A DNA stretch of 64,000 bases from Escherichia coli (GCF_024502345.1 NZ_JALDNN010000001.1); one strand, 5' to 3'. Numbered from the stretch's first letter, positions 6,955-36,603 are shown. The notes: generated by a model not told the origin, from the sequence alone. Numbers and translations: made by a program.

Positions 6955-7031
<77 letters not shown>

Positions 7032-7239
7032 TCCGTGGATGCGCACTATACTCCGCTCGCGTTTTCATGCAACCTTTTTTTTACCCCGATCACGGATTTA
7101 GCATGATTTTGAACAAAAACAAACCACTAAAGCCTATTTTTTGTGCAAAATTTGCGTCAGGGAGAGGCTGCTCATTTCATTAAACGCGGCGGTTTGTTAT
7201 CTTCGTTGCGCCTTATTTTTTAACCTGAAGAAGAGAACA

Positions 7240-8337
7240 ATGAAAGGACGTTGGGTAAAGTACCTTCTTATGGGCACGGTTGTGGCAATGCTTGCCGCCT
7301 GCTCTTCCAAACCAACCGATCGCGGACAGCAATATAAAGACGGGAAATTTACCCAGCCTTTCTCTCTGGTGAACCAGCCAGATGCCGTTGGCGCGCCGAT
7401 TAACGCCGGTGATTTTGCCGAGCAAATTAACCATATCCGTAATTCGTCACCGCGTCTGTATGGCAACCAGAGTAATGTTTATAACGCGGTGCAAGAGTGG
7501 CTGCGCGCAGGCGGTGATACCCGCAATATGCGCCAGTTCGGCATTGATGCCTGGCAGATGGAAGGTGCCGACAACTATGGTAACGTGCAGTTTACAGGCT
7601 ATTACACGCCGGTAATTCAGGCGCGCCATACCCGCCATGGCGAGTTCCAGTATCCTATTTACCGTATGCCGCCAAAACGTGGTCGTCTGCCGTCTCGTGC
7701 GGAGATCTACGCGGGGGCATTGGGCGATAAATACATCCTCGCTTACAGCAACTCTCTGATGGATAACTTCATTATGGATGTGCAGGGTAGTGGGTATATC
7801 GACTTTGGTGATGGCAGTCCGCTTAACTTTTTCAGCTATGCAGGGAAAAACGGTCATGCCTATCGCAGCATTGGTAAGGTGCTGATCGACCGTGGCGAAG
7901 TGAAAAAAGAAGATATGTCGATGCAGGCGATTCGTCATTGGGGCGAAACACACAGTGAAGCCGAGGTTCGCGAGCTGCTGGAACAGAACCCGTCTTTCGT
8001 CTTCTTTAAACCGCAATCTTTTGCACCGGTGAAAGGGGCAAGTGCGGTGCCGCTGGTTGGCCGTGCTTCTGTTGCCTCCGATCGTTCAATTATTCCGCCA
8101 GGTACTACCTTGCTGGCAGAAGTGCCGCTGCTGGATAATAACGGCAAATTTAACGGTCAGTACGAATTGCGTCTGATGGTGGCGTTGGATGTCGGGGGCG
8201 CAATCAAAGGCCAACACTTCGATATCTATCAAGGGATCGGGCCGGAAGCCGGACACCGCGCAGGTTGGTACAACCACTATGGACGTGTCTGGGTGCTGAA
8301 AACCGCCCCGGGCGCAGGTAACGTCTTTAGCGGCTGA
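7240..8337 (+). CDS. mltA: Membrane-bound lytic murein transglycosylase A (365 aa, lipoprotein)
   Basis: ORF 7141..8337; start set at MKGRWVKYLLMGTVVAMLAACSS (lipobox LAAC); MltA recognised. Confidence 0.9.
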   Translation: MKGRWVKYLLMGTVVAMLAACSSKPTDRGQQYKDGKFTQPFSLVNQPDAVGAPINAGDFAEQINHIRNSSPRLYGNQSNVYNAVQEWLRAGGDTRNMRQFGIDAWQMEGADNYGNVQFTGYYTPVIQARHTRHGEFQYPIYRMPPKRGRLPSRAEIYAGALGDKYILAYSNSLMDNFIMDVQGSGYIDFGDGSPLNFFSYAGKNGHAYRSIGKVLIDRGEVKKEDMSMQAIRHWGETHSEAEVRELLEQNPSFVFFKPQSFAPVKGASAVPLVGRASVASDRSIIPPGTTLLAEVPLLDNNGKFNGQYELRLMVALDVGGAIKGQHFDIYQGIGPEAGHRAGWYNHYGRVWVLKTAPGAGNVFSG

Positions 8338-8424
8338 TGTGATATTCTGTATGCCGTTTTTACGGATATGACAGGGTGAGGGGTAACCTCACATCCTGAT
8401 TATTGACTAAGTGCGCGTTGTTCA

Positions 8425-8524
8425 TGCCGGATGCGGCGTGAACGCCTTATCCGGCCCACAAATCATGCAAATCCAAAATATTGCAGGAGTTATGTAGGCC
8501 TGATAAGCGTAGCGCATCAGGCAT
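8425..8524. repeat. BIME: two inverted REP (palindromic unit) elements
   Basis: gccggatgcggcgtgaacgccttatccggcc and gtaggcctgataagcgtagcgcatcaggc match the E. coli REP consensus. Confidence 0.8.
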
Positions 8525-8533
8525 TTATGCGTT

Positions 8534-8561
8534 TAGGGTGAGGGAAAACCTCACCCTTTTT
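8534..8561 (+). terminator. Terminator-like hairpin with T-run, 15 bp upstream of the tcdA start
   Basis: 9-bp stem agggtgagg/cctcaccct, loop gaaaa, followed by ttttt. Confidence 0.55.
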
Positions 8562-8575
8562 AATTCTGAGGTGCT

Positions 8576-9382
8576 ATGTCTGTGGTAATTAGTGATGCAT
8601 GGCGTCAGCGTTTTGGTGGCACAGCGCGTCTGTATGGTGAAAAAGCGTTGCAACTGTTTGCTGACGCGCATATTTGTGTGGTTGGTATCGGTGGTGTCGG
8701 TTCCTGGGCGGCGGAAGCGCTGGCGCGCACGGGGATTGGCGCAATCACGCTTATCGATATGGATGATGTGTGCGTCACCAATACCAATCGGCAAATTCAT
8801 GCCCTGCGCGATAACGTTGGGCTGGCAAAAGCGGAAGTCATGGCGGAACGTATTCGCCAGATTAACCCGGAGTGCCGTGTAACGGTGGTGGATGATTTCG
8901 TGACGCCGGATAACGTAGCGCAGCATATGAGCGTGGGTTATTCGTACGTGATTGATGCCATTGATAGTGTACGGCCCAAAGCGGCGCTGATTGCTTATTG
9001 TCGGCGCAATAAAATCCCGCTGGTCACGACCGGTGGCGCGGGTGGGCAGATTGACCCAACGCAGATTCAGGTTACCGATCTGGCGAAAACGATTCAGGAC
9101 CCGCTGGCGGCGAAGTTGCGCGAGCGCCTGAAAAGCGATTTTGGCGTAGTGAAAAACAGTAAAGGTAAGCTCGGCGTGGATTGCGTGTTTTCTACTGAAG
9201 CGCTGGTGTACCCGCAGTCAGACGGTACGGTGTGTGCGATGAAAGCCACGGCAGAAGGGCCGAAGCGGATGGATTGTGCATCTGGATTTGGCGCGGCAAC
9301 GATGGTGACCGCCACCTTTGGGTTTGTTGCGGTTTCTCATGCGCTGAAGAAGATGATGGCGAAAGCGGCGCGTCAGGGTTAA
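8576..9382 (+). CDS. tcdA: tRNA threonylcarbamoyladenosine dehydratase TcdA (CsdL/YgdL), E1-like (268 aa)
   Basis: 268-aa ORF with ThiF/MoeB-type nucleotide-binding motif VVGIGGVGSW. Confidence 0.88.
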   Translation: MSVVISDAWRQRFGGTARLYGEKALQLFADAHICVVGIGGVGSWAAEALARTGIGAITLIDMDDVCVTNTNRQIHALRDNVGLAKAEVMAERIRQINPECRVTVVDDFVTPDNVAQHMSVGYSYVIDAIDSVRPKAALIAYCRRNKIPLVTTGGAGGQIDPTQIQVTDLAKTIQDPLAAKLRERLKSDFGVVKNSKGKLGVDCVFSTEALVYPQSDGTVCAMKATAEGPKRMDCASGFGAATMVTATFGFVAVSHALKKMMAKAARQG

Positions 9383-9389
9383 ACAATCA

Positions 9390-9421
9390 GGTCGGATGCG
9401 ACGCGAACGTCTTATCCGACC
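9390..9421. repeat. REP-like palindromic element between convergent tcdA and csdE
   Basis: ggtcggatgcgacgcgaacgtcttatccgacc. Confidence 0.6.
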
Positions 9422-9432
9422 TGGTTCTGTGC

Positions 9433-9876
9433 TTAAACCTGCTTCGCCGCAGCGATAATTGCCTCGCTTAACGCATTCAACCCCTGGCTGCGTGAGGCGC
9501 TAAGCTGCCCACGCAATCCCAGCTCATCAAACAATGCCAGCGGCGACTGTGCCTGTAATTCGGCGGCGGTTTTCCCCTCAACGGCAGTCAACAACACCGC
9601 CAACAGGCCGCGCACAATGCGCCCTTCGCTGTCGCCAAAGAAGTGCATTTTACCGTTTTCAGCCACGGTATATCCCAGCCAGACGCGGTTTTCGCATCCG
9701 GCAATCTCTTTAGCCTGCGCTTTTAACTCGTCTGGCAAAGCCGGAAGCTGTTTCCCCAGCATGATCAACTGGCGATATTTATCTTCCCATTGCGTCAACG
9801 GTGCGAAGGTATTGCGTAACGTTTCTGCGGTTACGGTTGTGCCGAACGGATGTCCGGCGAATTGCGGGTTTGTCAT
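9433..9876 (-). CDS. csdE: Sulfur acceptor protein CsdE (SufE-like, 147 aa)
   Basis: 147-aa ORF recognised as CsdE/YgdK; its start overlaps the csdA stop. Confidence 0.88.
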
Positions 9877-36372: not shown

Positions 36373-36495
36373 GACAGAAAACCAAAACCGGCTCTATCTG
36401 GAGCCGGCTTGAGACTGATGCTAAACGCAAAATAGCCTGTTGTGCTATGTATCAGGTCTACATCATTTTTTAATTCATTGAATTTAATTGGTTTT

Positions 36496-36530
36496 GTAGG
36501 CCGGATAAGGCGTTAACGCCGCATCCGGCA
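36496..36530. repeat. REP element between gudD and barA
   Basis: gtaggccggataaggcgttaacgccgcatccggca. Confidence 0.75.
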
Positions 36531-36603
36531 TAAACACAGGCACTTTGTCACCAATCTGAAACCAGCGTCATAAAAAGCCGATTGCTACTCGACAAGACGT
36601 CCG

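Follow-up and report, generated by a model that had tools for sequence, protein, structure and literature searches.

Two copies of one terminator hairpin flank a BIME-1 unit between mltA and tcdA of Escherichia coli and may record its insertion and loss

The 64,000-nt stretch of E. coli DNA that was analysed (the window) carries, in this order, amiC (+), three initiator tRNA genes (-), mltA (+), tcdA (+), and csdE and csdA (-). The mltA coding sequence in the list of open reading frames lies at 7240..8337 (+), and RefSeq annotation of identical loci gives it the same stop and a length of 1098 nt. The tcdA gene (= ygdL), which codes for the enzyme that forms ct6A in tRNA, occupies 8568..9382 (+), with the ribosome-binding site GAGG at 8568-8571 and the coding sequence at 8576-9382, as placed by the list of open reading frames and by conservation across genera; the block TTTTTA(A/C)(T/A)T(C/T)TGAGGT-N3-ATG that precedes the gene was kept across genera. 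Strain AMSHJX01 was 100% identical to the window over the queried 501 nt at 8200-8700. The spacer between mltA and tcdA measures about 238-246 nt in this allele, hereafter the long allele, and as a whole it folds much more stably than shuffled sequences do (z = -5.7).

Two related stem-loops flank a pair of inverted REPs in this spacer, as a sequence-only reading of the window had stated. The first, hairpin 1 (8372..8398, +), was recognised from a direct repeat and from folding. That reading had put it at 8374-8390; the hairpin is there, with a core 6-bp stem (GTGAGG/CCTCAC) at 8376-8392, so that its 3' arm had been drawn 2 nt short. The full fold at 8372-8398 has 10 bp, interrupted by a bulge of 2 nt (AT), at -14.7 kcal/mol (z = -3.1), and consists of a repeat copy (8373-8392), an AT insertion (8393-8394) and CCT (8395-8397). 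The left copy of E. albertii forms the full hairpin, uninterrupted. On the sense strand, hairpin 1 of the window has no U-tract, its stem being followed by AUUAUUGACUAAG; it was not called by a terminator scan, and Adams et al. 2021 list no 3' end for the sense strand at this place. An antisense 3' end of K-12, at 2946050(+), which corresponds to window position 8368, does lie just past it in another growth-condition sheet (PMC7815308), and hairpin 1 may therefore stop or protect an antisense RNA.

Hairpin 2, together with its T-run, occupies 8535..8561 (+), as defined by folding and Term-seq. The 9-bp stem and T-run noted by the sequence-only reading, 15 nt before the tcdA ATG, are both present: the stem (8535-8557) is perfect, with 6 GC pairs, arms AGGGTGAGG/CCTCACCCT and loop GAAAA, its energy is -17.6 kcal/mol (z = -4.6), and the T-run (TTTTT) is at 8557-8561. 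The two hairpins share a 20-nt direct repeat (8373-8392 and 8535-8554; 18/20 identity, 162-nt spacing). The pattern GGGTGAGGN5CCTCAC gave three strand-wise matches in the 64 kb window, where 0.01 would be expected; all of them were at these two hairpins, the right one matching on both strands. The likeness of hairpins 1 and 2 is far beyond chance. We also considered the GGGTGAGG hairpin as a dispersed repeat family, and rejected this because it occurred nowhere else in the 64 kb window. When the full mltA 3' UTR was folded, the 5' arm of hairpin 1 was able to pair with the 3' arm of hairpin 2, enclosing the REPs. The hairpin stem was invariant across 23 sequences apart from single wobble-compatible changes, and so is uninformative on pairing by covariation.

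A complete BIME-1 unit fills the 137 nt at 8398-8534: it has a single REP of each type, y and z1, oriented inversely to each other, a long L linker between them, and a single extragenic occurrence. From left to right, all on the + strand, it contains the left outer motif GATTATTGACTAAGTGCGCGTTGTTC (8398..8423), which is conserved beside the y REP in paralogs; an inverted REP of the y type (iREP-y, 8424..8460), identified by its inverted repeat, a weak naRNA4 hit, and alignment of strains and paralogs; a 32-nt L linker (8461..8492), identified by its match to Rfam ES036; a REP of the z1 type, TGTAGGCCTGATAAGCGTAGCGCATCAGGCAT (8493..8524), identified by inverted repeats and identical in the fepA-entD paralog; and the right outer motif TTATGCGTTT (8525..8534), which comparison with other copies showed to be truncated. 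The REPs, typed as in PMC3333891, are identical in other BIME-1 copies; the y REP here has CCAC in place of the conserved CTAC. The ES036 match extends over 8459-8501 with 46.5 bits (gathering score 37.6), the same family matches the linkers of three other BIME-1 copies, and the ES036 'sRNA' family is in effect the centre of BIME-1. Binding of IHF to the mltA-tcdA linker is uncertain because its IHF-type core has two substitutions relative to other copies (ATCCAAAATATTG vs ATTCAATATATTG).

The right junction at mltA-tcdA is atypical, because the right end stops 12 nt short: GTCATCAGTCTC, which other copies have there, is absent. The left outer motif was kept beside the y REP at fepA-entD, barA-gudD, rlmC-artJ, mscK-rsmS, yqjF-yqjG and yvcK-uvrB, and in six copies the left end was identical at 9-13 of 16 positions to the reverse complement of the right end, whose terminus is the part absent at mltA-tcdA. 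The two outer motifs thus form an imperfect inverted pair, the left one being a putative terminal inverted repeat. In strains that lack the insert, its best match was the fepA-entD paralog (89% over 137 nt, positions 6-142, including both outer motifs). The window itself holds a second BIME-1 at about 36430-36560 (-), between barA and gudD.

Hairpin 2 was one of only two terminator-like sites that the terminator scan found in 7000-9600, and its GC-rich stem is followed directly by a U-tract, as in intrinsic terminators. Term-seq of K-12 MG1655 mapped a 3' end to 2945855(-), which corresponds to window position 8563 (Adams et al. 2021, PMC7815308), 6 nt past the stem and 13 nt 5' of the tcdA start codon; the sequence printed for this end is that of the right hairpin, and the second A of CCCTTTTTAA marks the end (PMC7815308). 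The end was detected in one of three growth conditions (LB, OD 0.4; average count 32,337), has an intrinsic-terminator score of 12.2 (threshold 3) and a Rho score of 0.55, lies outside the Rho termination regions, and was classed by Adams et al. as 'orphan / upstream ORF -13' (PMC7815308). Given this mapped, Rho-independent 3' end and its intrinsic score, we conclude that hairpin 2 is a working Rho-independent terminator of mltA. The sequence-only reading had described the second hairpin as a terminator abutting tcdA and had held that a lack of 3' ends at the hairpin would count against it; the published Term-seq data contain such an end. Exonuclease trimming, too, can leave a 3' end at a stable hairpin.

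This terminator appears to be leaky. DirectRNA-seq values, taken over 800 nt to either side of the 3' end, were 107 upstream and 65 downstream without bicyclomycin and 152 and 51 with it (PMC7815308); without the drug, coverage past hairpin 2 was still about 60-61% of that upstream, a crude ratio in which read-through and re-initiation are inseparable. We collected TcdA-anchored loci from 80 enterobacterial species, 79 of which could be examined, and mltA was directly upstream of tcdA in all 79. It is plausible that tcdA is reached by read-through of hairpin 2, given the coverage ratio, this constant adjacency, the spacers of only 10-19 nt that leave no room for a promoter in four species, and the short E. 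coli allele, in which just 76 nt, mostly hairpin, separate mltA and tcdA.

Alternatively, tcdA might be transcribed from a promoter inside the mltA 3' end or the BIME, in which case hairpin 2 would be a 5'-UTR attenuator of tcdA and not mainly the mltA terminator. The label given by Adams et al., the 61% of upstream coverage that persists downstream of hairpin 2, and a stem that is unusually invariant across genera, beyond the need of a plain terminator, are in keeping with such an arrangement. However, a promoter scan of 7000-9600 on both strands found no site (the scan was insensitive, as it missed the mltA promoter too), and neither the 10-19-nt spacers of the four species nor the 76-nt short allele would accommodate the promoter readily. 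Furthermore, Rfam at E <= 1 matched only tRNA, ES036 and, weakly, naRNA4, with no riboswitch or leader family, and in both MFE and centroid folds only the duplicate hairpin arm competed with the terminator stem; no alternative antiterminator pairing of the kind expected of a riboswitch or leader attenuator was seen. The supplements of the Cappable-seq and SMRT-Cappable-seq studies had no entries for the mltA-tcdA locus. We regard a separate tcdA promoter as the strongest competitor of the reading in which hairpin 2 terminates mltA and is partly read through, albeit clearly the less probable of the two.

The spacer is polymorphic in E. coli. When 8200-8700 was searched against 5,426 complete E. 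coli genomes, 2,751 had full-length 501-nt matches, and the rest had a locus exactly 162 bp shorter; in a second search, 60 evenly spaced rows comprised 30 short and 30 long alleles. This natural polymorphism, close to 50:50, alters both the mltA 3' UTR and the sequence just 5' of tcdA. We aligned four short and three long alleles. The short allele, which has no REPs, contains a single hairpin, AGGGTGAGGG(G/A)TAACCTC(A/G)CCCT; TTTT, the ribosome-binding site and the ATG come next. It follows that the long allele carries this one hairpin twice, the 162 bp corresponding to the insert plus one repeat copy.

Outside E. coli, the same hairpin occurred without REPs in at least eight other enterobacterial genera. 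A single hairpin with a T-run and an unchanged distance to the ribosome-binding site, in a spacer of 70-77 nt, was found in Citrobacter amalonaticus, Phytobacter massiliensis, four Enterobacter species and two Leclercia, and the hairpin together with other upstream inserts was found in Salmonella diarizonae, Lelliottia, Huaxiibacter and others. As the outgroups have it in single copy, the single hairpin is the ancestral architecture. E. albertii and two divergent Escherichia lineages carried the long allele with an identical right junction, in which TTATGCGTTT adjoins AGGGTGAGG, which indicates that the insertion is older than E. coli.

The sequences of the short alleles bear on how they arose. 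In the largest short class, to which ST131 belongs and which accounts for about 20% of genomes, the loop carries a G found otherwise only in the left copy of the E. coli long allele; another short class, of about 12%, has a stem G private to the right copy. In addition, the short strain Nord58 and the long strain VTB96959v differed at only 2 of 473 positions in the left flank and at 8 in the right. Because short alleles bear variants private to one or the other copy, the simplest reading would be that at least two independent precise deletions took place, with different crossover points inside the repeat. A further short class has an ancestral-type hairpin, GGGATAACCTCACCC, and could be an uninserted allele, either retained or brought back in by recombination, so that the direction of change within E. 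coli may not be the same for every short allele.

It is conceivable that the polarity is the reverse, the short allele being the ancestral state of E. coli and the long allele having spread by insertion or horizontal transfer without recurrent deletions. This would fit the short architecture of other genera, the short class with the ancestral-type hairpin, and the common presence/absence polymorphism of BIME-1 (PMC1187871). However, all three non-coli Escherichia representatives (3/3) were long and had the same truncated right junction, the short classes S1 and S3 carry the substitutions private to the left or right long-allele copy, and long and short alleles were found on near-identical flanking haplotypes. 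We consider reversed polarity improbable, and somewhat more so than a separate tcdA promoter. That the short alleles arose by deletion, and not by retention, is part of the explanation that we prefer and that, taken as a whole, we hold to be likely: one ancestral mltA terminator would have been duplicated by the insertion of BIME-1, with recurrent precise loss thereafter.

We looked for the same arrangement at other BIME-1 loci, which were gathered in two steps: metagenome data were scanned for the left motif, and the known units were then compared by BLAST with all the DNA collected. Six of nine distinct loci had the unit between two copies of a locus-specific terminator-like hairpin. The repeats were AGGGTGAGG..CCTCAC at mltA-tcdA (20-23 nt), AAGCCGC-loop-GCGGCTT at rlmC-artJ (18 nt), GGCGACATTTAG..GCCCC at mscK-rsmS (19 nt), and AAAACGAGG..CCTCGTTT at yqjF-yqjG (26 nt), with further repeats of 21 nt at yvcK-uvrB of a divergent lineage (L197) and of 23 nt at a locus on contig L145. 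Local alignment of the left flank to the right flank of the same locus gave scores of 24-38 at the six loci, and controls that set the left flank of one locus against the right flank of another had a mean of 13.3 (sd 2.8, maximum 22, n = 88). At all six, the left copy adjoins the start of the unit, (C)AGATTG..., and the right copy retains a T-run. The bases at the left junction differed (CTT/CAG, CCC/GAG, TTT/CAG and CCT/GAT, the slash marking the junction), and the duplication lengths of 18, 19, 20-23, 21, 23 and 26 nt each equalled the local stem-loop and were not fixed. The hairpin-BIME-1-hairpin footprint recurs across loci: where the element has entered at the 3' foot of a terminator hairpin, the entire stem-loop is present twice, and the duplication tracks the hairpin, not a fixed number.

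Element-free alleles with one hairpin were found at rlmC-artJ, mscK-rsmS, yqjF-yqjG and yvcK-uvrB, with gaps of 170, 170, 177 and 154 bp, respectively. K-12 is itself element-free at yqjF-yqjG, where the element was present in only 89 of 5,425 genomes; this rarity indicates a recent gain with duplication. The fepA-entD locus had no flanking hairpin repeat, and barA-gudD had a decayed trace only. At these loci the element is near-fixed (98.5% and 96% of genomes, respectively), as would be expected if the repeats are what permits precise loss. The yvcK-uvrB locus was considered as a counter-example, since the common E. coli allele lacks the right copy; this was set aside because L197 has both copies, and the right copy was probably lost secondarily.

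The recurrence of the footprint also bears on the suggestion of the sequence-only reading that the structure is a REP-associated regulatory or RNA-stabilising one. In its full form, the suggestion would be that the hairpins and the BIME are one evolved regulatory or stabilising module and that hairpin 2 is not a simple terminator. The stability of the whole spacer fold (z = -5.7) and the ability of the arms of hairpins 1 and 2 to pair around the BIME would suit such a module, as would a report that documents REPs as combined partial terminators and stabilisers (10.64898/2026.03.23.713779), and the listing of the ygdL (= tcdA) upstream region, with artJ, in a predicted BIME-type 'attenuator cluster' (Naville & Gautheret 2010). 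However, about half of E. coli and at least eight other genera have kept the block of hairpin, T-run and ribosome-binding site with no REP beside it, and in both place and score the mapped 3' end is that of a plain intrinsic terminator; the bracket also recurs at other loci with unrelated hairpins, which therefore points to a mode of insertion, not to a locus-specific design. We consequently give the module little credence; on the reading we prefer, the two hairpins are alike because the target hairpin was duplicated when BIME-1 inserted, not because they form a designed bracket. The least probable alternative, to which we attach almost no weight, is that slippage first duplicated the hairpin in tandem, as it is known to do with short palindromes, and that the BIME later entered between the copies, since tandem hairpins without a BIME occurred in no E. 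coli sample and in none of 79 species, and the two steps would be needed independently at six loci with unrelated hairpins.

The sequence of events that we propose, in which one terminator is duplicated by insertion and the insert is then lost repeatedly, would run as follows. Ancestrally, mltA would have ended in one intrinsic terminator, AGGGTGAGG-loop-CCTCACCCT plus TTTTT, situated 10-15 nt before the tcdA ribosome-binding site, and in the ancestral 76-nt spacer this terminator would have served both as the mltA transcript end and as a leaky gate before tcdA. Before the split of E. coli and E. albertii, a complete 137-nt BIME-1 would have inserted at the 3' foot of the hairpin, duplicating the whole 23-nt hairpin. 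The left copy would have stayed on the mltA side, lost its U-tract and gained the 2-nt bulge, so that sense termination is not expected of it; the right copy would have kept the T-run and remained the terminator, leaving mltA with a BIME-1 in its 3' UTR and tcdA to be expressed by read-through. The insert would then have been lost precisely and repeatedly, probably by replication slippage, because direct repeats of 20-23 nt enclose it and it forms a large palindrome of its own; that DNA between short direct repeats can be deleted is well established. Each loss would restore the single hairpin, which would account for the approximately 50:50 split in E. coli.

How a whole hairpin might be duplicated can be stated with low confidence only: this outcome would be expected if an extruded hairpin or cruciform were nicked in staggered fashion at both its feet and the gaps then filled in. 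The form of the footprint could also reflect selection in favour of insertions that leave a terminator on each side. Microhomology-mediated template switching was rejected, because the right junction has no more than 2 nt (AG) in common and the left junction has none. A more general proposal, which we put forward tentatively and with somewhat less than even confidence, is that BIME-1, about 150 bp long and bounded by imperfect terminal inverted repeats of 16 nt, is MITE-like, that it targets intrinsic-terminator hairpins and generates a structure-defined duplication of 18-26 bp, that the bracketing hairpins keep termination intact, and that the repeats permit frequent precise excision. If true, this would be the first sequence-level footprint of REP/BIME insertion. 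A 1997 Genetics paper by Bachellier et al. reportedly speaks of 'excisions of a whole BIME-1', and the footprint may already have been described in part, for example there. Neither a whole-hairpin duplication flanking BIME-1 nor its recurrence is mentioned in PMC3333891, PMC2817692, PMC3337134 or PMC1187871, and, according to Ton-Hoang et al. 2012, both how and how often BIMEs move is unknown.

Taken as a locus, mltA-tcdA is ordinary, and its components (an intrinsic terminator, a BIME-1, presence/absence among strains, a mapped 3' end and a predicted attenuator) are of known kinds; its interest, which we judge to be moderate, is in the footprint as a clue to BIME-1 insertion and excision. Terminator hairpins become a concrete candidate target, and a duplication of palindrome length a testable product. 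The footprint would explain how BIME-1 can reside at the 3' ends of transcription units without loss of termination, and why its presence or absence so frequently varies among strains. The long and short alleles of mltA-tcdA also offer a ready test of the effect of BIME-1 on mRNA stability and read-through.

As a terminator, hairpin 2 resembles the leaky intrinsic terminators found inside operons, with a GC-rich 9-bp stem, a 5-nt loop and U5, and, like them, it is insensitive to bicyclomycin, has an in vivo 3' end and leaves partial coverage downstream. It departs from usual intrinsic terminators in that no more than 10 nt lie between its end and the next gene's ribosome-binding site, and in that its stem is near-invariant in at least nine genera while the loop varies, which is more conservation than terminators usually show. 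The REP325 spacer of the yjdMN operon likewise separates tandem genes of which the upstream one is the more highly expressed; in contrast to REP325, termination at mltA-tcdA maps to a canonical hairpin and U-tract, is Rho-independent, and is older than the REPs.

The insert agrees with BIME-1 (RIP/RIB) as described, which has inverted y and z1 REPs and a 32-nt L linker, occurs as a single copy of about 140 bp, lies outside genes at a gene 3' end, and is present or absent among isolates (PMC3333891, PMC1187871). It differs from those descriptions in sitting between two copies of a local terminator hairpin and in lacking the right outer 12 nt. In the REPIN/RAYT (TnpA-REP) system, too, the REP doublet is the unit, and in vitro the E. 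coli TnpA-REP protein both cuts BIME DNA and joins it again, with hairpins as its recognition elements (PMC3333891). The tnpA-REP (yafM) locus is outside the 64 kb window. Published models of TnpA-REP and BIME describe no target duplication, and insertion of the IS200/IS605 type produces none (PMC2817692), unlike BIME-1, which is flanked by a duplication of a whole hairpin and has variable bases at its left junction. The closest likeness in form is to MITEs with target-site duplications, since BIME-1 is also small and non-coding, with flanking direct repeats and clean empty sites, and has candidate terminal inverted repeats, imperfect over about 16 nt (9-13/16). To our knowledge, no DDE transposase is associated with BIMEs, and the duplication around BIME-1, unlike that around MITEs, is 18-26 bp long and is set by the target hairpin, not by a transposase.

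Just before tcdA, we compared the 48 nt that precede its ATG across genera (window 8535-8575 and the enterobacterial tcdA loci L007-L066) and found that the terminator stem GGGTGAG/CTCACCC, the run of five T residues and the spacing to the ribosome binding site were nearly invariant in at least nine genera, and that the loop was variable in both sequence and length (4-8 nt). Judged from these alignments, the sequence conservation of this stem exceeds what a plain terminator would need. At the other hairpin of the mltA-tcdA spacer, the Term-seq data of Adams et al. 2021 (PMC7815308) include a 3' end on the strand opposite the terminal part of mltA, at K-12 position 2946050(+) with a count of about 1,960, in a growth-condition sheet other than that which holds the sense-strand end. 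This position corresponds to window ~8368 on the minus strand, just past the left hairpin when the opposite strand is read, and the left hairpin copy thus seems to be the stop point of antisense transcripts that span tcdA and the BIME.

The BIME-1 between these hairpins carries a variant y iREP. At window 8456-8459, alignment showed CCCACA in the lineage of this strain, as compared to CCTACA in other strains. The GTAG/CTAC tetranucleotide is conserved in REPs and has been reported to be important for TnpA-REP cleavage; the substitution therefore mutates this conserved element in the y iREP of the window. In all the BIME-1 copies that we tested, at window 8459-8501 (plus strand) and in the fetched loci L096 (835-877), L087 (1264-1305) and L008 (1385-1426), the L linker scored above the gathering score for the Rfam family RF02751, annotated as 'ES036 (CssrF) sRNA'. 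What this family describes therefore appears to be the central part of a dispersed repeat rather than one sRNA gene. Downstream, tcdA and csdE are convergent, and the 50-nt gap between their stop codons holds a single REP-like palindrome (window 9377-9421, minus strand), with a weak naRNA4 match of 29 bits, below the gathering score.

A second BIME-1 unit, with a degenerate z1 REP, lies in the window between barA and gudD (~36430-36560, minus strand), and 96% of E. coli genomes have it. The terminator hairpin AAGCCGGCTC..GAGCCGGTTTT follows this unit, and before it stands AATCGGCT..GACGCTGGTTT, which looks like a decayed copy of that hairpin. At yqjF-yqjG, the allele of E. coli strain N96 (match H119) measured 817 bp, as compared to 639 bp for the BIME-1-containing query, so extra sequence is inserted at the hairpin site. 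Seven metagenome contigs (the L152 cluster) join an mscK-rsmS left flank to a fepA-entD right flank with BIME-1 between them; these are most likely assembly chimeras made by the repeat, and such joins call for caution when short-read contigs are used.

The mltA-tcdA spacer also holds other inserts in other genera. In Enterobacteriaceae bacterium UBA5654 (L033) the spacer measures 639 nt, and a 110-nt unit occurs there in 4.3 tandem copies (862-1316). Every copy includes a CCCTCTCCC/GGGAGAGGG palindromic repeat and the last ~27 nt of mltA, stop codon included, so that the 3' end of this target gene has been duplicated several times together with the inserted repeat. In further genera, CCCTCTCC...GGAGAGGG palindromes are inserted immediately beside the GGGTGAGGG arm, or repeats CCCTCTCCC..GGGAGAGGGTTAGGGTGAGGG are found instead (L020, L023, L035, L054 (just 5' of the hairpin); L024, L070, L079). 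The title of PMC4666352 names a class of intrastrand-triplex repeats, of which these inserts may be members. Finally, Kosakonia sp. S29 (L026, ~1290-1500) and locus L017 carry a ~150-nt insert between two GGGTGAGG hairpin copies, apparently an independent case of the hairpin-insert-hairpin arrangement at the same mltA-tcdA hairpin. The REP-like palindromes of this insert differ from those of BIME-1; its left end, CAGATTTTTGACAAAG, is similar to the left outer motif of BIME-1.
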